Source: Malassezia furfur (Eukaryota). Taken from it: a stretch of DNA of 48,237 bases. The stretch lies in the NCBI GenBank assembly GCA_052055015.1, contig JBQJIT010000032.1; one strand, 5' to 3'. Made by a program: the position numbers and the translations under genes. Positions 3,429-48,000 of the stretch are shown here, one piece after another; position 1 is the first letter of the stretch; the number at the start of each line of letters is the position of its first letter. Below the pieces are notes generated by a model that saw only the letters and a list, made by a program, of their open reading frames with translations, was not told the origin of the DNA and made no database searches.

Positions 3429-4882
3429 ATGCCGCTGGACCTACCCAGTCTCCTGTCGCAGTCCTCGTGTGACCGACCGCTGTCTGCGATCCGTGGACTA
3501 CTTCCGCTTGAGAGTCGTCCTGGTGTGATCTCGCTGCTCGCGGGGAAGCCGAACCCTAGCGGATTCCCGTTTGACTCCATCACGTTGCGGCTCAAGCCCT
3601 CCGTCGAGGGCAGCAAAGATGCCCAGGGCAACCCCGTGGAAATCACCATCGATGGCTCGGAACTTGAGCGTATCCTGCAGTACGGAAGTACGAACGGCGA
3701 TGTGACGCTTGAGAGGGAGCTCACCAAGCTCATTAGCCGCGTCCACCACCGCACGCGCAACAACGGCCAGCCCGATGGCGACTTTGCGCTGGCCATTGGG
3801 TCGGGCAGCCAGGACCTTCTGTACAAGACGATCTCGATCCTGTTCAACCCGCAAGATACGGTGCTTGTTGAGTCGCCCGTGTACCCGTACGTGTAACAAC
3901 TGACGCCAGCGGTTTCCTTCCAGAACTCGAGACGCATCGGGTCAAGGCGGTGGGCATCTCCACCGATGAACAAGGTCTTTCGGCGCAGGCTCTGCGCGAT
4001 ACGCTCAAGAACTGGCACACTTCCGACACTACCAAAGAGCTCCGGTTCCCCAAGGCGCTGTACACGGTGCCTACGGGCGCCAACCCGGCGGGCACCACTG
4101 CTTCCACCGAGCGCAAGCGTGAAATTCTCGCGATCGCGCGCGAGTATGGATTGCTGGTGCTCGAGGATGATCCATACTACTTCCTGACCTTTGAGGACAT
4201 GTCTGAGGATGCTCTGCAGCAGAAGCGCGCGCTTAGCTACTTCGCGCTCGAGCGCGAGGACGCGGATAAGTGGGGGTATGGCTACGTGCTACGCTTCGAG
4301 AGTTTCTCCAAGATTCTCTCGGCAGGCATGCGCGTTGGGTTCATGGTGGGTCCTCCGACGCTAGTCAACGCCGTCGTGGCCCTCACTGCGTCGTCCAACC
4401 TGCACACAAGTGGGCCGGCGCAGGCCATGGCTGGCGAGCTGATGCAGTACTGGGGAACCGACGGTTTCCTGCGACACACACACAACGTCGCCCGGATGTA
4501 CAAGGAGCGTCGCGATATGTTTGGCCGCATAATCGACACCATTCTTGGACGTGGCGAGGACGGAAAACAAACACCGATCGCGACGTACGTGACCCCCGTC
4601 GCCGGCATGTTTTACTGGATCAAGCTGCATCTTCCGCCCACGGACGGCGCGCCTGAGGGCGACTCGTACCGTGTCATCTCGGAGAAGGCGCTTGAGTTTG
4701 GTGTCCTGGCCATGCCAGGAGGTGCCTTCTTTGCCGACAAGCGCAAGACGCCGTATGTGCGCACATCGTTCAGCCTGATCGAGCCGCAAGACGCGCATGA
4801 GGCCATCCTGCGTCTCCGTCGCGCCGTGGAGAGTGCTTGGAAGGATGCTGGATACGATGAGATCCCTGCAATGCAGACATAG
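3429..4882 (+). CDS. PLP-dependent aromatic amino acid/2-aminoadipate aminotransferase (Aro8-like)
   Basis: Motifs ISLLAGKPN, LQYG, NPAG, EDDPYYFL and PLP-lysine motif SFSKILSAGMRVG. A 23-nt intron (3887-3909) joins ESPVYP|GFLP. Confidence 0.9.
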
Positions 4883-13047: not shown

Positions 13048-15992
13048 ATGGCCGAGCGCGCGCTGTTCGACGGGGTCCGCTACGTGTTGGCGGATACGCT
13101 GTCGAAGCACCAGACAGAAGAAGTACGCATGATGCCTTACCAAGCTCCAAACCCTGCTCAATGAGCACGGCGCCGAGCCCGCGGCGGCCGCTGACGACCG
13201 CATTGCGTTCGAGGCCAACGCCACGCACGTCATCACCGAGTCGCTTTGCGCGCAGACACGCTGGTGCCAGTCACTAGCAGATGCACAATCCACACGAGAC
13301 CCACACGAAGTGTGCGCCGTGACGGTACGTGCGCCGCCGCTGACCACAGCCGCTGTGGGTGACGCGCTCCGTCGCGCTCCACCACATGCAGCCCGAGGGG
13401 CTGTACTCGCCCAACCCCACGCGCCTCTTTTCGGGGGTCGTAGTGAGCTGTGCAGGCCTTACGCCACACGACCAGGAGATGATCGCGGCGGCGGTCGAGT
13501 CGCTGGGCGGCGCCGTGAAACAGACGCTGTGCGAAGAAGTGACGCACCTCGTCGCAACGTCGCGCGACACGCCCAAAGTGCATGCGCTCGAGGGGCGCCC
13601 CGACATTGCGATCGAGGTCGTCGCACCACACTGGGTCAACGATAGCTTCCGGCTGAACCGGCGTCTGCCGCTGCGTGACTACGTCTTTGACCTGCGCAAG
13701 CCCAATGCCCTGCCCGTGTGTCTGCGCGCGTCGTGGGACCGGCCACAAGAACGCGCGTCGTCACCGTCCTCGTCGTCCGTCGACGAAGGCGCGGCGGTGC
13801 TTGCGGGCAAGAAGGTGCTGTTCGCGCGCGACATCCACGGCGGCGCGCTCGAGGCACATCCCGAGCTTCACTCGCTCCGCGACCGCGTCGAGGCACGTGC
13901 CACCGGCCGCCTCGACGCGGTCGCCGAGGGGTCCGACGACGCAGCGGTCGAGGCAGCCGTCGCGGCCGCCGACCTAGTCGTTGCGCGCTACCGCGAGAGC
14001 CGTGAGTTTGGTGCGGCGATGCGGCAGGACGTCACGGTCGGTACCCTGCCGTGGCTCGTGCACATCCTGTCCAAGGGGCGGATGGTCTCGCCGCGCGACC
14101 GCCTGCTGTACTTCCCGTACCCGCGCAAGCCGGTACCCGGCTTCGACCGGCTGACGGTGACCATCACCAACTACTCGGGCGCCGCGCGGTCCTACCTCAA
14201 GGAGCTCATCGCCAAGATGGGCGGCACTTTTACCCCGCACATGACACCGTCGCACGACGTGTGCATTGCGCTCGAACTCGTTGGCGAGAAGGTGAACAAG
14301 GCACGCGAGTGGAACATCCCGGTGGTCAACCACCTGTGGCTCGAGCAGTGCTTCGCGACGTGGACGAACCAAACGCTAGCCCAGACGCAATTCCTCACGT
14401 TCCCCGGCGCCGCGCAGCTCAAAGCGGTCGTGGGTCGCGCAAGTGTGCCGGACGCAAGCTTGCAGGCCTACCTGCGACCTGCTCCGAAAGAGGCGGCGCC
14501 CACGCACTCCCAGGCGACACCCGAGGCAGAAGGCGCCGCACCGCCCGCCGCACCCGCCGCACCGGCCGAGTCGCGTGCGGAAGAGGCCGCATCGGATGTG
14601 CGTGTGGCACCGGCTGCGCCGGAGGCTGCTGCCGAACAGGATACCCCGCTGAATCATACCCCTCAGCATACGCACATGGACCCCATGGTCGACGAGACGG
14701 TGTACATACAGGGCGACCGCGAGGCGGAGCCAAACGTGAGCGCTGACGAAGTGGCGGAAGAACCGCAAGAAACAGAGCCGCTGCGTGAGACGGACGAGGC
14801 ACACGAAGTGGCGCACGACGTGGCGCCGGAGGCCGACGGGGCACAAGAGCCCAAAGAGGGACAGGTGCCCGAAGAGGCCCAGCCCGAAGAGGCCCAGCCT
14901 GAAGAGGCCCAGCCCGAAGAGGCCCAGCCCGAAGAGGCCCAGCCTGAAGAGGCCCAGCCTGAAGAGGCCCAGCCCGAAGAGGCCCAGCGCGTCGATGCGG
15001 CGCTGGAGAGCGCTGTGGCACAAGACCGTGGTGTGCTGGCGGATGATGCTACGACCCAAAAGGACGACCCCGCGACGCCCAACGAGCACGCTGCACCGGT
15101 GCACACGCCCGAAGCAAATGGCGACGCCAGCACCGACGACGCTGCAGCAGGAGCTCCTGCGCCCGAGGCGCCCGACGCCGATTCCACGGCACCTGCCGAT
15201 GAAGCTTCCGAGGCGCCGCCGACCGCACCACCGCCAGCCACCTCGGCGGCGCTCAGTGACGACCAACTTGCCGAGGCCGAGTTGGGCATTGCGCCGCCTC
15301 CCACGAAGCGCAAGTCGGACCACGACATGCCGCGGACGCCGCTGTCGGCGCGCAAGCGCAAGCGCGAAGTGTGCCTGGCAACGACTTCGGTCGAGCTCAA
15401 GCCGAGCACGCTGGCGGTGCTCGATGCGCTGCATGTGCGCCGCGTCGACGATGTGGCCGAAGCGACGCACCTCGTCGCCAAAGGGCTGACGCGCACCGAG
15501 AAGATGCTGTGCGCCATTGCGCTTGGCACCGTCCAGGTGGTGTCGGTCGACTGGCTGAAAGAGGTTGTGCGCCGCAAGCAGCTCGTCGACACGGCGCCCT
15601 ATGCGCTGCACGACGCAGAAAAAGAGGCCAAGTGGTCGATGCGGCTGTCAGATGCGCTGGCACACAGCGCGGCGCATCCCGGTGCTCTACTGCAGGGCCA
15701 CACCTTCTACGTGAGCCGTAGTGTGCAGCCGAGCCGCGACGTGCTGCAGCGCGTCATTGAGGCGGCGGGCGGCCACGTCTTGCCGCTGTCGAGCGCAACG
15801 GCGCGCAGTGTGGCACAGGCGCAGCACCACGTCCTGGGTGCGCGCGAGGACCGTAAAGCGCTCCAGACGCTGCGCGACCAGGCGGCCAAGCACGGCACGC
15901 CCGACCTGCGCATCTGGACACCGGAGCTGATCCTCGTCGGGGTGCTGCGGCAAGCGATGCAGTGGGACGAGCAGTATGCGTTGCCCCTCTAA
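13048..15992 (+). CDS. Multi-BRCT DNA-damage scaffold (Rtt107/Brc1-like)
   Basis: N-terminal BRCT repeats (LFDG...THVI...WV; THLV...PHWVNDS; ITNYSGAARSYL...VVNHLWLEQC), an acidic linker and a C-terminal BRCT pair (THLVAKGLTRTEKMLCA). Introns 13123-13144 and 13325-13349 extend the ORF to ATG 13048. Confidence 0.85.
14868..14987 (+). repeat. 15-bp coding minisatellite x8, (CCY GAA GAG GCC CAG)8 = (PEEAQ)8
   Basis: Directly visible. Units differ only at CCC/CCT. Confidence 0.97.
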
Positions 15993-23725: not shown

Positions 23726-24847
23726 ATGGCAGTACCCGAGCCGACGGTGGATAAGCTCGAGCGGGAGAAGAAGATCAATGTAATCACCCATGCGGACAAG
23801 CAGCGGCCCTTGTTCAAGTGCTTGTTCCAATCGCTCGCCGTGTTTCATTGGATCCTGATGCCGTCCTTGTGCTTGTGCGTTTTCTGCTTGCTCTGGTACG
23901 TGCGCTGCTCACCCAGCACCATCCCTCCGTTGTGGTTTATCACAATCCCCTACGTGATTTGGTCGCTATGGATTGACGACGCGCCTAGCACTGGAAAACG
24001 ACGGTCCATGTGGTTCCGCCGGCTGTTTCTCATGCGGCTGATGCGGAACTATTTTCCGATTACACTCGAGCGTACGGTTCCGCTCCCAGCAGACCGTCCA
24101 TACTTGTTCGGATACCATCCGCATGGGATCATCGGGCTCGGCGCTGTGGTCTCGTTTGGATCTGAGGCATGTGGCATCGCACAAAAGTTGCCTGGCATCG
24201 TGCCGAGAGTGCTGACGCTGGCATCCAACTTCAATATGCCACTCTACCGCGAATATCTCATGCTGCTCGGTTTTGGGTCCGTGTCGCGTGAATCTTGCGA
24301 GACTCTGCTAAGCCAAGGGCCTGGTAGCGCCATCCTTATCGTTGTGGGCGGCGCGCAGGAGAGTCTGAATGCGCGGCCAGGCGAGATGGATCTCACGCTG
24401 AAGAACCGCAAGGGGTTCGTGCGTGTTGCAATGCGTACGGGGTATGTTGCACTACTGACACAGCGCCGACCTCGTGCCGACCATTGGGTTCGGCGAGAAC
24501 GATATTTACAAACAGGCAGACAACCATGAGGGGAGCTGGCTGTACAGTCTGCAGCAACACGTAAAGCGCCTTGCAGGCTTTACTATACCCATCATTGAAG
24601 GACGTGGTCTCTTCCACGCATCATTTGGATGGATGCCGTACCAGCGGCCTATTAACGTCATTATTGGCGAACCGGTTCAGGTAACCCACACCAAGGAACC
24701 AACCGACGAGGAAGTGGATGCAATGCACGAACGTTATGTCCAGGCCTTGATCAAGTACGTCGTTTGCGCGTCTAACCTTACAGACTTTACGAAGCGCATA
24801 AGGACGAGCTGCTGCCCGACCGGCTCAACGAGTTGCATCTAGAATAA
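23726..24847 (+). CDS. DGA1: Diacylglycerol O-acyltransferase (DGAT2 family)
   Basis: YFP, GYHPHG, VVGGAQE, RKGFVRVA and ADLVPTIGFGEND. Introns are 23896-23916, 24442-24463 and 24755-24783. Confidence 0.92.
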
Positions 24848-28132: not shown

Positions 28133-30190
28133 CTAGTCGCGCTTCGCACGTGTGTCCAAAATCTCGCGGAACGCCTGCTGGGGAACCTGAACGCGGCCCA
28201 GGGACATGGCCTTGAGCCGCTTCTTGCCCTCCTTTTGCTTGTTGAGGTGCTTGAGCTTGCGCTCGTAGTGCCCGCCGTATAGGCCGGCCGTGACATCTTT
28301 GCGGTAGGCCCGCACCGTCTCGCTCGCCAGCACCTTGCTTCCGACGCATGCCTGGATCTTGATCTCAAACTGCTGCCGAGGGATGGCCGTCTTGAGCCGC
28401 TGTACCCACAGCCGCCCAAAGTAAGCCGCCTTGGAGCGGTGCAGCACGAGCTCGAGTGCATCCACGGGCGCTGAGGCTACCAGGAAGCGCAGCTTCACCA
28501 GATCAGACGCCTCGTAGTCGCCATCCTCGTAGTCGAACGAGGCGAAGCCCGAGCTGCGCGACTTGAGCTTGTCAAAGAACTGGGTCAGTACACAGACGTA
28601 CGTCGGTCACCACCTCGGCGAGCGGCAGTTTGTATTGCATGTGCACCTGCGCACCGCCGCCGGACGAGAACTCCGCGTCGACCTGCTCGCCGCGGTGCTC
28701 CGCACAGAGCTCCATCATCGCTCCCGTGTACTCCTCGGGGCACACAAGGGACCCGATCACAAACGGCTCCTCCATGAGCGCGACATGCGTCTTGCGGATT
28801 GACTCGTCGGGGAAGTCGACCGGGTTCGAGCACAGGACCTGCGTCCCATCGCGGTAGGTGATGCGGAACGGGACGGTGGGCGTCGTGACGAGAATCTCGT
28901 GCCCATACTCGTCCTCGAGCCGCTGCCGGAACACATCCAGGTGCAGTGTGCCGAGAAAGCCCAGGCGGTAGCCCTGCCCCAGTGCTGTCATCGACTCGCG
29001 CTGCATCGAAATGGACCGATCATTGATGGCCAGGCGCTGGATGGCATCCTCCAGCTTCAAGAAGTCCGACTTGTCCGTCGGAAAGATGCCCGCAAATACG
29101 GTAGGCAACGCAGGACGGAAGCCAGGCAAAGCCTCGACTTTTTCGCCGGCGCGGTAAAAGGTATCGCCGATGTTTGCTTCGTCTGTCTCTTTCATGTTGG
29201 TGATCATCCAGCCGACCTGGCCCTTGCGCAGAATGGGCGTCGAGACGGGCTCAGGGTTATTCACGCCGAGATCCAGCACCTCGTACCGCTTGCCCGTGTG
29301 ATGCGACACGACAGTGTCGCCTTTGCGCACGGCGCCATCGGCGATGCTCACCAGTGCAATCACACCTTTGTACCGGTCGTACCAGCTGTCAAACACGAGT
29401 GCACGGAAGCCGCGCGGCTCGCGCTGCGCAAGCGACTTGCCGTCCACGCCGGGCAGCGGCGCAGTACGTTCGACCAACGCATGGAGCACCGCATCGACGC
29501 CCTCGCCGGTCTTCGCGCTCACCAGAAGCGGCGCATGCCTTGGGTCGTCCATGTCCATCCCCAGCATGTCTGAGAGCTGTGAAATACAGCGGTCGGGGTC
29601 CGAGGCGGGCAGGTCAACCTTGTTCAGCACCGGAATCACCGTGAGGCCACACTGCGTCGCGATTTTGTACACCGAGATGGTCTGTGCCTGGATGCCCTGT
29701 GTCGCATCCACGACCAGGAGCGCCGACTGGCACACAGAAAGACTTCGGCGAACCTCATAGGCAAACTTCGTGAGTAAATAGCGGTACGTACGTCAACGTG
29801 TCCCGGTGTATCGATGAGGTTGAGTAGAATTGGAGGCAGGTGTTGCTTCTCTCGCTCGGGATCTTTGTAGAGCATGCTCACTGCCTGTGACTTGACGGTG
29901 ATGCCACGCTCGCGCTCAACTTTCAGCTTGTCAAGGACCTGCTTATTGGATCCGTCGCTCGGGATGGTATTTGTGCGCTCCAGCAGACGGTCGGCCAGCG
30001 TCGACTTGCCATGGTCGATGTGCGCAATGATCGAGAAACTTCGCGTTTCGTACAGGTCAAAGGGGATCTCCTGCTTCTTTCCGCACACGACAGGCGTCGT
30101 GTGCACGAAGCGCACGCCCATACACAGAGGCGGCCTGCCCACGCGCACCGCGTGCGCCAGGCCGCGGCATGCTCCACGCACGGCCGCCAT
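28133..30190 (-). CDS. GUF1: Mitochondrial translation factor Guf1 (LepA/EF-4)
   Basis: [39 protein letters not shown] (intron 29766-29791), GFLGTLH, VVTD|FFDKLKS (intron 28580-28601) and [11 protein letters not shown]. Confidence 0.95.
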
Positions 30191-31680: not shown

Positions 31681-31763
31681 GTGCGTATAGCGAGGCGCTT
31701 TGCGCGCCGGCGCAATCGAACAGGATACTAACACACCGCGTGCTATACGCGACGTATCTACAG
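31681..31763 (+). other. Predicted 5'UTR intron of RPL24 (83 nt) with a self-complementary donor
   Basis: GTGCGT donor after CAAG, TACTAAC at 31726-31732 and a CAG directly before ATG 31764. Confidence 0.7.
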
Positions 31764-32674
31764 ATGAAGGTCGAAATCTGCTCGTTCAGCAACAAGAAGA
31801 TCTACCCGTACGTACGACGAGAAACAACAGGACGCTAACCGTCAGGGGCCACGGCAAGCTGTTCGTCCGTGGTGACAGCAAGGTGTGTACTGACGAAGTG
31901 CAGGTTCGGCGTATACCGTGGGTGCGATGATGCGCAGACACAGACGAAGAATGACGTGCAGACGCGCTCACGTACGACGATGTGTACAAGGGAGTTGGAT
32001 CGTGCAATACACTGGGGGTGCACAACACATTCACACGAGTGGTTTCTGCCGCGACATTGTACACGCCTCTACTCCCTTTCACACGCCGGACTGAATGTGT
32101 TCGAGCGGTTTGTCGAGCAAGGGTGTACCAAATGAGAAGAGCATCCTCTGCGTATGTTTCTTCTGTCCGGAAGAAACGAGGTGCTTGGACAACTGCATCC
32201 ATGTCTGTACACGCACTCTCTCTCTGTCTGTGTCTGCGTGCACCCTACGCATACCGTCGCCTGTCTTTCCCCCTGTAACCGATACTAACCGCGCAGGTGT
32301 TCCGCTTCATCTCGTCGAAGTCGGAGTCGCTCTTCCACCAGCGCAAGAACCCCCGTAAGATTGCCTGGACTGTGCTGTACCGCCGCATGCACAAGAAGGG
32401 TATCTCTGAGGAGGCCGCGAAGCGCCGCACGCGCCGCACCGTGAAGCACCAGCGTGGTGTTGTGGGTGCGAGCATCCAGGACATCCAGTCGCGCCGCAAC
32501 CAGAAGCCTGAGGTGCGTGCCACGCAGCGCAAGGAGGACCTCGCGCAGCGCAAGGCTGCCAAGAAGGAGCGCAAGGCGGAGCGCAAGGCCAACAAGGCCT
32601 CGCTGCAGTCGACCGGTTCTCAGATCTCCCGTCAGCAGGCCAAGGGCGGCGCGCGGGGTGGTCTCAAGGCTTAA
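31764..32674 (+). CDS. RPL24: 60S ribosomal protein L24 (eL24)
   Basis: MKVEICSFSNKKIYP|GHGKLFVRGDSK|VFRFISSKSESLFHQRKNPRKIAWTVLYRRMHKKG. Introns are 31808-31845 and 31883-32296. Confidence 0.96.
31900..32264 (+). ncRNA. Candidate structured intronic RNA (unclassified) in the RPL24 intron
   Basis: Multiple long complementary segments: 31932-31945/32226-32239, 31920-31925/32240-32245, 31988-31995/32071-32078, 32024-32033/32092-32101 and 32156-32163/32170-32177. Confidence 0.55.
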
Positions 32675-43222: not shown

Positions 43223-44972
43223 ATGTATTCTAATGCTCAGGGAAGCAATAGGCAATCCCCAAAGCGAAAATCGCATGGCTTTGAACCCGCTTCCACCTCC
43301 GACATGGGTCAAGCGCCCAACAACCAAGGTTCCAATATACCCATGGGAAATGCCAGCTACATTGACATGGATCTTCTTCTGAATAATGAGCTCTGGAGAC
43401 ACATTACTCCTCCGCAACAGGCACATGCCCCGGAAACAGAATTTTCTCAGGGCATCCCCTTCCAGCGAACATTTCCTGAGGCTCACAACATGTGGCATGG
43501 ACCTCGCCAAGAGGCCGTGGAATCGTTGCATCCTACACACCACGGATTGTCGGCACCGGCGTCCCAATCCTCCATTGCATACGAACGCGCAGGGCCGACT
43601 ATGGAACGGGACGCGGCTTATTCTTTGCCACAGCAAAGGTCGAATGAACCGCTACCCGGCCGTCCGTTCCCGGGCGCAGAGGCCAACGTTCAAAGCATGC
43701 CGGCTGCCTCGAGCACATTTGCACATCCGCGCCAAAAACGGTTTGTGGAAGATCATGGGGTGGCCATGGTCCCCCCTGACGTACACCCTACCGTGGGCTC
43801 GGCGCCACCCAATTTCATGACGCCATGGAATATACAGCACATGCGGTCGCGTGAAGGAGTTCATCCGACTCCGAGGGACCATGCCAAACCCTACCAGCGT
43901 CGATCCAGTGGAGATGCCGCAGGCGGTGCCTCGCACACGTGGGTGCATTCGCAGATGCGGCCCCATACGGGGCGATCCAACTCGGAAGACTATGTTCGGG
44001 AACTGGACGATTCGATTCCATCGGATAACGACAATGCGGAAGAGCTAGACTCGATGCCGTCAACGCTGATGTCTTCGAATGACTCGGAAGCCAAAAAACT
44101 GCTGGACAAGCGCCGAAGACGGCGCGAGTCCCACAATGCCGTCGAGCGTCGCCGTCGGGACAACATTAACAGCCAAATGACTGAGCGTACGTATGATCCC
44201 GGAACACTGACCCAGTCGCTACGCTGCTGCCCGAAACCATGTTACTCGATGCAATAACGTACGTCTTCTTCACTCACACGACAGGACCTCGACGCAAGGC
44301 GGCAACAGCGCATCGTGGACGTTTGGACCCGAGACGGCGGCCAAGGTGGCACGCAGTCGTACTGGTCTCGGCTCGTGGCGTACCATTGGCAATGAGACGC
44401 AGGTTCAGGACCCCGCGTTGAACCAAAGCCGTGGCATTCCCAAGGAGTCGTGCTTGAACATGCCCTCATTTACCAGTTTCGCAGCCGCATTATCGCCTGT
44501 TGACGCAAACAACCCTGCACTGGCTGCAGCGCAAGCGAAGCCCAACAAGGGCATCATTTTGCGAAAAAGCGTCGAGTATGTGCGCCAACTCCAGCAATTC
44601 CTGGATATGCAGATGCGCCGCAACCACATGCTTGAGCACGAGCTACGGCAGCTGTATGAAGCCAAATGGCGTGAGTCATCAATCGCGTCCGGGAGTAGCG
44701 AGTCGGCGATACCCTTCTCGTGGTCATCGGCACAGGTGCAGCAGCAGCAGCAGCAGTCGCAGCAGCCGCAGCAGCAACAGCAGCAGCCGCAGCAGCAGCC
44801 GGCGTCACTGCCGCTGCCGTCACAGTCACATCTGTCCTTCCCGTCGTCGCCCGGCGCCGCGAGGAACGAGACAGGCGGAACGGACACAGGCGTGCCACAT
44901 GCTGTACCTGAATACTCTTCGCCTGACCGAGCCATGTATGGAATGAAAAATGATCTCGGCGAGTCGTCATAG
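43223..44972 (+). CDS. bHLH-ZIP transcription factor (Rtg3/MiT-TFE-like)
   Basis: RRESHNAVERRRRDNINSQMTELATLLP ... KPNKGIILRKSVEYVRQL followed by a zipper. Introns are 44187-44215 and 44259-44284. Confidence 0.85.
44739..44798 (+). repeat. Interrupted (CAG)n poly-glutamine tract
   Basis: Visible CAG run encoding QQQQQQSQQPQQQQQQPQQQ. Confidence 0.9.
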
Positions 44973-45077: not shown

Positions 45078-48000
45078 ATGGACGCGTGGGACGACGAGGC
45101 GCTCGATGACTGGTACGCGTCGGACGTAGCTTCCTCTGCCGAGGACTCTGCCGCTGAGCAGGAGGCGGCGAGTGAGGCATCTGAGGCTGGCGAAGTCGAC
45201 GATGACGCGCGCCTGGACCTGCTCCGCCCGCCCATCCTGTCTATCTGTGCGGCGCTGGGCGGCTACGAGCACGTCGACGTGGACGGGCGTCTGGAGCTCG
45301 TGTATCGGCTTGGAGATGATTGTCTAGGTACGTTATATGCTCACACAGAATGCCTGCGAGATCTGCGGCGTCTCTGGCGCCAGGACGACACGGACAACAG
45401 TCGTGCGGTCGCGCGTGTCTTTGCCGAGCTGGGCACGCTGCACAACGACCTGATCCCCATCCTGCTGCACACGGCGGGTATGGGCGAGAAGGCGGACAAG
45501 ATTGCGCTTGCGTGCAGTACGTCGGCCACCCACTGACCGCAGCCGACTTGATTACGGCGCTCACCTGGCCGATCGACTGGAACGCCGAGGTGCACGACAT
45601 TGTGACGCGTGAGGAGGAGGAGGACGGCGTGCTGTCCAAGCTGGTTGGTCTTCAGGCCGCGCAGGTGCAGTATAAGGCATCGGTGCTGCGCGTGCGCGCC
45701 AAGGAGCAACGCCTCGTGAGCCGGACGGTGGTCGGGTGCGTGATGCGCCATTTGCTGCTGCCTGCACTGGCCAAGCCGCGTGTGGACCGCACGGAGCGCG
45801 ACACGGGGCTGATCGGCATGTGCCTTCACCTCTTCCGCAACCTGCTCGCGATCCGCGACCCTGTCGCGCACACGACGAGCAGCGCGGCAGTCGTGGCCAA
45901 CGCGACGCTGCAGAGTCTGCTCGTGGAGCAGCTCGAGGAGCACTTTGTGCTCGACACACTGTTGATGCTCGCAAGCAACGCCGACACCAAGGAGTACGAG
46001 GCGTGGGTGCCCGTCGCGGCCGACTGTGTGTACCAGCTGTACATCGGCTCGGACGTGCACGAGATCGCGACTGTCGAGGCGGCGACGACGCGTGCGTCGT
46101 CGCATGCGCTCGCCGCCTCGCTCGACCAGGAGGCGCGGCAGAAGCGGCATGGCGTGAACAATGCGCGGCATTCGCGCTTCGGCACCACGATCCAGTTCCG
46201 CGCGCACGACGGATCGCTGCGCGTCGCGCGGCGTCCCGCGGCGCTGGTCGAGTCGGTGCGCCGCCTGGAGCAGGGCATTGCAGACCGTGGGCGGCGCAAG
46301 ATCTCGCGCAAGCGCCGCGCGACCGAGCGTGGCGCGCCGCAGCGCTACACGGCGTGGACGAGCGGCGCGCGCGCCGTGCTCCGGCGGTGGGCCGACCGGT
46401 TTGTGCAGGACGGCGCGTTTGGGGTGCTGGAGCAGCAGTACCTCAAGGACATCCACGCCGAGCGCGAGCGAGTCGGCGATCTGGATGCGGCGCGGTGCAA
46501 GGCACTGCAGCTCGCGACCTTCTTCCTAGACTATTTCCGCGCGCGGCGGGCGCACGACGCGGCGGCGTTTGGCTTCGGGCTCGTTGCCGCGTGGCTCGAG
46601 CCGTGGGCGTTCCGCCTGTCGCGCAGCCGCGCGGCGATGGCGCTCGAGGCGAAGCAGTGGCTCGAGTTTGTGGCCGCCGTGCGCCTGTGGACGTCGCTGC
46701 TGTGCCTCTTGCACGCGCTCGCGCACGGCTCCTCCGAGGAGCGGCAGGTCGCCGACGAGCTGCAGAACACGCTGTACTACGACGGCGACCTGCTCGACAC
46801 GAGCCTGCAGGTGATGCACGCGTACACTGCACAGAGTTTCGCGTGCCTTGAGGCGGTGCTCGACTTTGCGTACACCATGCCCCGTCTCCTCGAGAAGCAC
46901 GCGGCGCAGCACGAGTACGTGTTTGTCAAGGCGCGCCACGGCGGGCAGGACGATGAGGAGTCGGTGTCGCGCAGCGAGCGCCTCTTCCGCTTCCAGACCT
47001 TCCAGCGCGCCATGGCCACGACGCGCCTCGCGCATGTGTGCACGCAGTACCTCGTGCGCTGGGCCGACTCGGCGCAGCCGCGCACGATGCTACCACGCCT
47101 CGCGAGTGTGGTGCACCGCATCACCGTCAAGGCCGAGCGCCCCGCGCTCTTCTTTGCGGCCAAGACGCGCGAGTTGTGGGTGCGCCTGCTGCGCGGCGGC
47201 GACCAGGCGCTCGCGGCGTGCGACGCCGAGGCTGCCGCGACGCTGGTCAAGCTCGCGCGCTACATTGAGCGCCAGTTTGCCAAGCTCGACGGCGCACTGC
47301 AGGAGGCGTTTGACGCGAACAAGCGCCCGGCGCGCGCGCCCAAGGCGGACAAGATCCCCGCCGAGATCTGCGTGCGCCCGGGCCTCGAGCACAGCGAGCA
47401 GATCGGCGTCGCGGTCGGCCTGCTTGCCGAGGAGCACAAGCTCGCCGAGGTCACCTGGGTCAAGTTCCACCTCGAGCTCGCGAGCGCCGCACGCAAGGCG
47501 CTCATGGCGTCCGACGCAGACGCGGACCCCGCGGCCCCGAGCGCCGCGGTACAGGAGCAGTTTGCTGTACACCGTACGTCGCCTTGCTGACCCAGCCCTC
47601 ACGACCGACTCGGATGCGGTGCGGACCGAAGTCACGCGCAACCCCGCGCTCAAGCTGCTGCTGCGCCTCGTGGGCCTCGAAGCGAGCGTCGAGGAGGCGC
47701 ACTGGGTGTGGAGCGTGCCGCGCAGTTGCACGCCCGCGTCGCTCGATCGCGACGCACGCATCATCGACCAGTACCTTGCGCAGCCGCTCCTGATCGAGGG
47801 CGAGCTGCGCGACCAGGTGCAGCGCGTGCGCGCCCCTCGCGCGCGCACCGACGCGCCAGGCGACGCAGCGGACGACGCCGAGCGGCCGCGCAAGCGTGCA
47901 CGCCCCGACGCCGACGGCCGCCCGGCGAAGAAGCGCGCGCCGCGCATCCCCCGCTGGCTCGACAACGAGTTCATCGAGGACAGTGACGAGGAGCTCGCAT

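Follow-up and report, generated by a model that had tools for sequence, protein, structure and literature searches.

A long intron of the Malassezia furfur RPL24 gene with a predicted zipper stem between its two ends

Comparable systems have been described in baker's yeast. [quoted passage not shown] Here we describe intron 2 of RPL24, the gene of ribosomal protein eL24, in a stretch of 48,237 nucleotides (nt) from Malassezia furfur (contig JBQJIT010000032.1 of assembly GCA_052055015.1), which is called the window throughout and is a GC-rich (~60%), compact eukaryotic sequence. The balance of evidence tips, by a modest amount, towards viewing it as a long intron of a ribosomal protein gene whose two ends would be clamped together by a zipper stem. 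Most likely, the element is a splicing aid of a type familiar from baker's yeast rather than a new RNA gene.

The interval 31883-32296 is a real U2-type spliceosomal intron of RPL24, a single-domain ribosomal protein gene. In this respect, the coordinates and the gene assignment of the first-pass annotation of the window proved correct, as the splice signals, the branch site and the eL24 exon 3 all fit. The intron (+ strand, 414 nt, phase 0, between ...DSK and VFRF... in the gene model) starts with GTGTGT at 31883, ends with CAG at 32296, and carries a TACTAAC branch site at 32283-32289, with the branch A at 32288, 8 nt before the 3' splice site. Translation of the downstream segment 32297-32674 yields 125 residues of eL24, beginning VFRF..., with the 60S ribosomal protein L24 of Malassezia brasiliensis as the best protein-database match (99% identity); the further matches include other Malassezia species, and the Pfam family PF01246 is precomputed on the matches. 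Retention of the intron would place an in-frame stop at 31927-31929.

According to the partition function, the two ends of this intron are joined by a long stem. The predicted 5' arm (+ strand, 31900-31950; helices with pair probabilities, P, of 0.71-0.99) is interrupted by a GATGAT bulge at 31926-31931, and the predicted 3' arm (+ strand, 32221-32264), which is pyrimidine-rich, ends 24 nt before the branch A. The same composition, purine-rich in the 5' arm and pyrimidine-rich in the 3' arm, is seen in both long introns of our sample, namely that of the window and that of the related locus L001 (see below). The helix 31932-31946/32225-32239 comprises 15 base pairs (bp) with P of 0.97 and is accompanied by the helices GGGTGC/GCACCC (P 0.98) and GCAGG/CCTGT (P 0.99); when the 14-bp core and the latter two helices were re-checked with 60-nt exon flanks, the pair probabilities were about the same. 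The free energy of the full stem, calculated as a duplex, amounts to -51.7 to -55.2 kcal/mol, the lower value being obtained over 40 pairs, 4 of them G-U, and that of the core duplex to -35.5 to -39.0 kcal/mol, while unpairing of the segment 32225-32245 in the 3' arm would cost 23.4 kcal/mol. [quoted passage not shown] Every pair of complementary segments listed in the first-pass annotation is indeed present in the sequence, and its suggestion that the ends pair non-randomly, with the first 17 nt and the last 32 nt of the intron left outside the fold, is borne out by pair probabilities close to 1 and by the excess over shuffled sequences.

The latter excess applies to both folding energy and self-complementarity. 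One of the conditions that the first-pass annotation had set against a function, a folding energy no better than that of shuffled controls, does not apply: the minimum free energy (MFE) of intron 2 is -152.8 kcal/mol, with a z-score (z) of -2.73 and none of 100 shuffles as low, and a second set of shuffles that kept the splice signals yielded z of -2.67, with 2 of 150 shuffles as good (the antisense strand gave z of -1.37). The longest perfect inverted repeat, of 13 nt, was reached by only one of 300 dinucleotide shuffles; the second-longest, of 10 nt, and the total of six inverted repeats of at least 8 nt were each reached by 2 of 300. The stability of the control introns is not unusual, with z of 0.62 for intron 1 of the window, -0.93 for its putative intron in the 5' untranslated region (5'UTR; taken as 31681-31764), and -0.72, 0.47 and -0.94 for intron 1 of the related loci L001, L002 and L004, respectively.

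These related loci come from metagenome contigs that were scanned with an alignment of Malassezia eL24 proteins; the scan returned 80 loci, three of them Malassezia-like. Specifically, exon 3 of L002 is 94% identical to a protein named for M. caprae, and those of L001 and L004 are 99% and 96% identical, respectively, to unnamed proteins and at least 83% identical to named Malassezia proteins. A further, Ustilaginaceae-like locus, L003, is 97% identical to a protein of Pseudozyma hubeiensis. In all four loci, an intron interrupts the gene at the same codon boundary (DSK/VFRF), with lengths of 395 nt (L001), 103 nt (L002), 121 nt (L004) and ~278 nt (L003), so that in the four Malassezia-like loci, the window included, the length at this site ranges from 103 to 414 nt, a roughly fourfold spread. 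As judged from these sequences, the site of intron 2 is old, being common to other Malassezia and to the Ustilaginaceae-like locus. The intron sequences themselves are a different matter: when the window intron was compared by blastn-short with its four orthologues, the longest word in common was 10 nt, and the sharing of one 10-mer (with L004) and of several 8-mers is at chance level by our estimate. Pattern matches in genome and viral contig collections gave no confirmed eL24 relative.

The orthologous introns can be examined for zipper stems as these are defined in PMC12350175, that is, stems of at least 6 bp that start at least 10 nt after the 5' splice site, end at least 20 nt before the branch point and leave linkers of 42-85 nt in total. 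This definition was applied to MFE structures, with controls obtained by dinucleotide shuffling between the splice signals and with the bulge limit set to 5 or 8 nt. With up to 5 bulged nt, the window intron contains a qualifying stem of 9 bp (-13.1 kcal/mol; 8 of 150 shuffles as stable, and any qualifying stem in 18 of 150), L001 one of 20 bp (-24.0 kcal/mol; 0 of 150), L002 one of 14 bp (-28.1 kcal/mol; 0 of 150) and L004 one of 11 bp (-18.3 kcal/mol; 8 of 150). With up to 8 bulged nt, the stem in the window grows to 24 bp, with a linker of 80 nt and an energy of -39.0 kcal/mol that none of 200 shuffles attained, and the stems in L001 and L004 to 23 bp (-24.5 kcal/mol; 1 of 200) and 18 bp (-25.3 kcal/mol; 0 of 200), respectively; no qualifying stem is left in L002, presumably as the linker outside the merged stem is too short. 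The dependence of the window result on the bulge limit has a simple cause, since under the published rule of at most 5 nt the 6-nt GATGAT bulge splits the stem and only the 9-bp outer piece counts. The composite 24-bp stem is built from the 15-bp, 6-bp and further helices (P 0.95-0.99), and its linkers, measured from the pair 31920/32245, are 37 and 43 nt, that is, 80 nt in total; measured from the outermost helix, 31900/32264, they are 17 and 24 nt, and their sum of 41 nt falls just below the lower limit of 42 nt. The zipper-type stems of the relatives have mean pair probabilities of 0.96-0.99. Thus, a predicted stem of the same placement recurs in the three orthologous introns of the Malassezia-like loci without shared sequence. 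Zipper stems of yeasts, too, show only 20-30% sequence conservation between species and occur in disparate orthologues (PMC12350175), which matches the absence of sequence similarity among the RPL24 introns studied here. The recurrence bears on the suggestion, made in the first-pass annotation, that retention of such an intron in a streamlined genome implies function: this argument is weakened, because the length of the intron varies fourfold among Malassezia and only the zipper-type stem recurs.

Several eL24 proteins of Malassezia in the databases begin with residues translated from the 3' end of intron 2 (...LTxQ/VFRF), from which it follows that intron 2 is present in those Malassezia as well, with at least 69-141 nt open upstream. 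The read-through N-termini of P0004, P0005, P0006, P0018 and P0019, even that of an eL24 with 95% identity, match the window only at the codons between the branch site and the 3' splice site. As a side observation, wrong or missing N-termini affect a set of public or predicted eL24 proteins (P0004, P0005, P0006, P0010, P0011, P0018 and P0019), with entries labelled M. vespertilionis, M. yamatoensis and Malassezia sp. CBS 17886 as well as several unnamed predictions, owing either to read-through of intron 2 or, in the M. yamatoensis entry, to a start at an internal methionine; the long intron 2 appears to defeat gene prediction. Another side observation concerns the region upstream of RPL24 in L004 and L002, where the Rfam model of AsrC, a bacterial antisense RNA, has weak matches, far below the gathering score, at the same relative place (928-985, E 3e-07, and 941-998, E 5e-04, respectively); our guess is that the signal comes from conserved coding sequence rather than from an RNA gene.

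What sets intron 2 apart from other introns of this genome is its length only, as introns here are mostly of 22-30 nt. A strict motif census of the window on both strands, which required GTAHGY, then CTRAC, then YAG within 9 nt, returned 22 micro-intron candidates of 22-39 nt (median 25; examples are 840-864, 1101-1122, 3887-3909, 24442-24463, 28580-28601 and 47574-47595), as compared to a mean of 2.0 in 100 block shuffles; the branch motif is CTGAC in 16 of the 22 and CTAAC in the remaining 6. At 414 nt, intron 2 is some 16 times as long as the local median, in line with the 15-20-fold excess over its neighbours that had been noted for it earlier. The exceptional length is confirmed, and the additional statement that it is the only long intron rests on the strict motif census. 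These values agree with the mean intron size of 30 bp in the manually curated annotation of M. sympodialis (PMC5389616, Table 2) and with a review according to which Malassezia genes have very short introns (PMC7426719). The prevalence of CTGAC among the micro-intron candidates, set against the CTAAC common to all three RPL24 introns, would be in keeping with longer introns relying more heavily on a strong branch site.

Splicing of this intron can be envisaged as follows. The stem would form in the pre-messenger RNA and would bring the weak 5' splice site, GUGUGU, to an effective distance of 41-80 nt from UACUAAC, instead of ~400 nt. By analogy with the S. cerevisiae RPS17B intron, the stem would help the 5' splice site to pair with the branch point or might even be needed for this. 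The interior of ~270 nt would simply loop out, probably as lineage-specific sequence with no function of its own. A fold that shortens the effective intron is the best-supported function of intron 2 and corresponds to a known kind of element. Several considerations weigh against this view. The structural evidence is prediction throughout, and the zipper geometry is modelled on the A complex of S. cerevisiae. [quoted passage not shown] Any long GC-rich RNA brings its own ends together. The shortened distance was thus rejected as a test statistic because shuffles collapse equally. The whole-intron z-score is unusual only in the window (-2.67) and in L004 (-3.02), not in L001 (-0.26) or L002 (-0.96), and the outcome of the zipper test depends on its parameters, with 8 of 150 shuffles matching the window and L004 at the 5-nt limit and no stem in L002 at the 8-nt limit. 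The linker lengths are not independent evidence because the range of 42-85 nt is imposed by the test itself. Sense duplexes are slightly more stable than antisense ones in three of the four introns and less stable in L001; these differences being small and inconsistent, we rejected them as a sign of selection at the RNA level. Finally, the orthologues available for comparison are three in number and all distant (68-69% eL24 identity).

Inside the stem, fold prediction yields a multi-branched domain (+ strand, 31951-32220; arm A at ~31975-32115 and a hairpin at 32156-32177), for which no homology or family was detected. The helices AAGGGAGT/ACTCCCTT (P 0.94) and GTTTCTTC/GAAGAAAC (P 0.98) and the hairpin 32156-32177 (P 0.98) are well defined, so that, of the two arms proposed in the first-pass annotation, AAGGGAGT/ACTCCCTT and this hairpin stand, whereas the lower stems of arm B and the CGCTC/GAGCG helix are absent from the MFE structure, which uses competing pairs instead. 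The perfectly complementary 10-nt pair 32024-32033/32092-32101 (+ strand, span 32024-32101), which crosses arm A and had been read as a pseudoknot or an alternative fold, is present as described, but it has P of 0 in the nested ensemble and costs +12.3 kcal/mol when forced; a nested alternative fold with this helix was rejected for its energy. As a further observation on intron 2, the palindrome GTGTAC/GTACAC occurs in it five times, at 31885, 31982, 32057, 32123 and 32205, the first copy overlapping the 5' splice site, and TGTACACGC and TTCACACG occur twice each; these copies create several competing inverted repeats.

Both the length of intron 2 and its terminal inverted repeat could, alternatively, stem from an inserted foldback element, or one resembling a miniature inverted-repeat transposable element (MITE). 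In this case, ~326-328 bp (31920-32245/7) would have entered an older intron of ~76 nt, in the loop of the small hairpin GCAGG-CGGCG...CGTCG-CCTGT that it already had. The stem would then be a by-product of terminal inverted repeats, tolerated because it keeps the splice signals close and not selected for an RNA function. We deem such an event rather unlikely; it concerns the origin of the intron and is compatible with a zipper function. As expected of MITE or foldback elements, the segment has an imperfect terminal inverted repeat of 26/20 nt (31920-31945/32226-32245) with a perfect core of 13 nt, and it is flanked by a 9/10 direct repeat that resembles a target-site duplication: the left copy, CGTATACCGT (+ strand, 31910-31919), abuts the inverted-repeat segment 31920-32245, and the right copy, CGCATACCGT (+ strand, 32248-32257), lies 2 nt after its right end. 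This very offset speaks against a duplication, as does the near-palindromic nature of the repeat, which pairs within the stem and may be an extension of it. Removal of the segment leaves a plausible intron of ~76 nt, near the size of those in L002 and L004 (103 and 121 nt), the interior has no homology to the orthologous introns, and the antisense duplex is nearly as stable as the sense one (-50.7 vs -55.2 kcal/mol), as would be expected for repeats at the DNA level. High copy number, however, is the defining trait of introner-like elements, and the 48-kb window has no second copy of the arms (the 2 matches are the arms themselves, with 1.08 expected by chance) and no related repeat; a protein search with the 138-codon antisense frame that runs through the segment found only itself (1 match among 18 candidates). 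Furthermore, L001 has an independent intron of 395 nt with a comparable stem, the flanks of which are complementary and not direct repeats.

The other alternatives assign a function to the RNA enclosed by the stem. One is that intron 2 hosts a functional RNA released after splicing, either an atypical C/D or H/ACA small nucleolar RNA (snoRNA) or a stable RNA of a new kind, and that the long stem marks it for processing or protection. This is improbable, even though ribosomal protein introns host fungal snoRNAs, and the introns of RPL7 and NOG2 have been analysed in eight intron-poor fungi, including M. sympodialis (PMC8476143); RPL24 has 0 occurrences in the accessible text of that study. In favor of a hosted RNA, one can also cite the self-complementarity of intron 2 above that of shuffles and the length of the intron at this site in the four Malassezia-like loci (103-414 nt). 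Box C/D snoRNAs carry a C box (RUGAUGA) and a D box (CUGA) near their ends, which are joined by a terminal stem. In the window intron, ATGATGC at 31927 resembles a C box, and CTGA is found once, internally, at 32091; as only C-like boxes with one mismatch (31924, 31927) and this single CTGA were found, a box C/D snoRNA was rejected. The candidate terminal stem has 8 pairs, 6 of which are G-U, and, among the relatives, L001 has two C-like heptamers with one mismatch and no CTGA, and L002 and L004 have neither box. In box H/ACA snoRNAs, a hairpin is followed by the H box (ANANNA), a second hairpin and ACA, with ~14-16 nt from the pocket to the box. Such an RNA was rejected as well: a naive scan returned 4 loose candidates in the window, none of them a two-hairpin unit with the right spacing, and for the ACA at 32209 the distance from the end of the upper stems is 24-32 nt, as against 14-16 nt. 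Guide sequences for ribosomal RNA are normally conserved, whereas here the words in common with the orthologous introns do not exceed 10 nt. The earlier observation that no known RNA family matches still holds, with 0 matches at the gathering score of Rfam 15 over the whole window, nothing matched in the orthologous introns, and, in permissive mode over 31700-32500, just two matches to microRNA models at chance level (E above 5). Equally doubtful is a splicing switch, responsive to eL24 or otherwise regulated and resembling that of yeast RPL7B, in which a surplus of eL24, or else stress, would stabilise a different fold, one that unzips the ends or masks a splice signal. Mutually exclusive pairings do exist, in that GTGCACCC (32238-32245) can pair with GGGTGC (31920), with GGGTGCAC (32016-32023) or with AGGGTGTAC (32120-32128), and the perfect 10-nt pair 32024-32033/32092-32101 is a further alternative; the in-frame stop at 31927-31929 in the retained intron would allow nonsense-mediated decay. 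Several ribosomal protein genes of yeast are known to be autoregulated by way of the structure of their introns (10.1101/2025.03.14.643126, PMC13232506), but RPL24 is not named as autoregulated in the accessible text of this literature. The alternative folds are, moreover, far away in energy (+12.3 kcal/mol for the forced 10-bp helix, +23.4 kcal/mol for opening the zipper), and the interior is not conserved among the orthologues. A k-turn, the motif bound by L7Ae, L30 or Snu13, consists of a 3-nt bulge and, after it, tandem sheared G-A pairs, to which each strand contributes a GA. Across from the GATGAT bulge, the sequence is GCGU-GCACCC, which lacks GA, so that a k-turn was rejected, and no other known motif for ribosomal protein binding is seen. 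A broader version, in which the interior of ~270 nt is a lineage-specific functional RNA, either a switch responsive to eL24 or stress that uses the GGGUGYAC/GUGCACCC and 10-bp pairings or a stable excised intron RNA, is one to which we give little credence; such an excised RNA, if real, would have been kept by a genome that otherwise shrinks its introns to ~25 nt. Taken together, the proposal of a novel intronic non-coding RNA, an atypical snoRNA or an autoregulatory switch found no support, there being no convincing boxes or k-turn and no conservation with the orthologous introns.

The remainder of the RPL24 gene model (+ strand), obtained by aligning full-length eL24 proteins with the DNA of the window, is as follows. 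Exon 1 (31764-31807; MKVEICSFSNKKIY plus 2 nt) aligns with the N-terminus of M. brasiliensis eL24; intron 1 (31808-31845; 38 nt, GTACGT...CGCTAAC...CAG) restores the frame P-GHGK upon removal; exon 2 (31846-31882; GHGKLFVRGDSK), assigned from the sequence and the protein alignment, ends with ...GACAGCAAG at 31882; and exon 3 (32297-32674), assigned by translation and protein matches, comprises 125 codons plus a stop codon at 32672-32674. Upstream, splice and branch motifs point to a putative 5'UTR intron (+ strand, 31681-31763; 83 nt, GTGCGT...ATACTAAC...ACAG), the 3' end of which adjoins the ATG at 31764. The same AG/ATG layout is found in L001, L002 and L004, and upstream of it these three Malassezia-like loci show a CTGAC/CTCAC-type motif. 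The branch motif CTAAC is present in all three RPL24 introns of the window. Elsewhere in the window, nine units of 15 nt (GCCCGAAGAGGCCCA and variants) are arranged in tandem at 14837-15016, within a long + strand open reading frame (13386-15992), where they would encode a short peptide repeat, and there is a CAG-rich triplet repeat at 44733-44798, which would be a glutamine-type tract if coding.

If a stem that clamps the ends makes intron 2 spliceable, the zipper-stem principle of yeast would extend to a basidiomycete, and the locus would be a compact natural test case for one spliceosome handling both micro-introns and long introns. In RPL24, which is a highly expressed ribosomal protein gene, Malassezia has retained 100-400 nt of intron at a single conserved site, and what gives the case its value is that the intron stands out against the micro-introns around it and that its stem recurs while the sequence is not conserved. 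The locus can finally be set beside four described systems. With the snoRNA-hosting introns of RPL7 and NOG2 (PMC8476143), it shares a conserved intron position, a ribosome-related gene and an intron-reduced fungal genome; unlike them, intron 2 of RPL24 and its orthologues have no convincing snoRNA boxes, guide conservation or Rfam match. Fungal introner-like and transposon-derived introns (PMC3609843, PMC11282704) resemble it in being longer than regular introns and in having a stable predicted structure, terminal inverted repeats and, possibly, a flanking direct repeat; here, by contrast, the intron site is old, so that only the interior could be an insertion, and the 48-kb window holds no second copy. 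The RPL7B intron (10.1101/2025.03.14.643126) is likewise a ribosomal protein intron with a zipper stem and mutually exclusive complementary segments, but its alternative structure is conserved, whereas the alternatives in RPL24, known from prediction, are much weaker than the zipper. Compared with the zippers of the RPS17B/RP51B type in S. cerevisiae (PMC12350175), the setting differs, in that Malassezia is a basidiomycete whose normal introns, of 22-30 nt, are far below the yeast minimum behind the geometry rule, and the predicted stem is much longer (24-40 pairs), with a 6-nt bulge that exceeds the published limit by one. The likeness is nevertheless extensive: in both cases, a long ribosomal protein intron has a stable stem between a segment close behind its 5' splice site and one a little ahead of its consensus UACUAAC branch site, the linkers fall within 42-85 nt, and the stem type recurs in orthologues without conservation of sequence.

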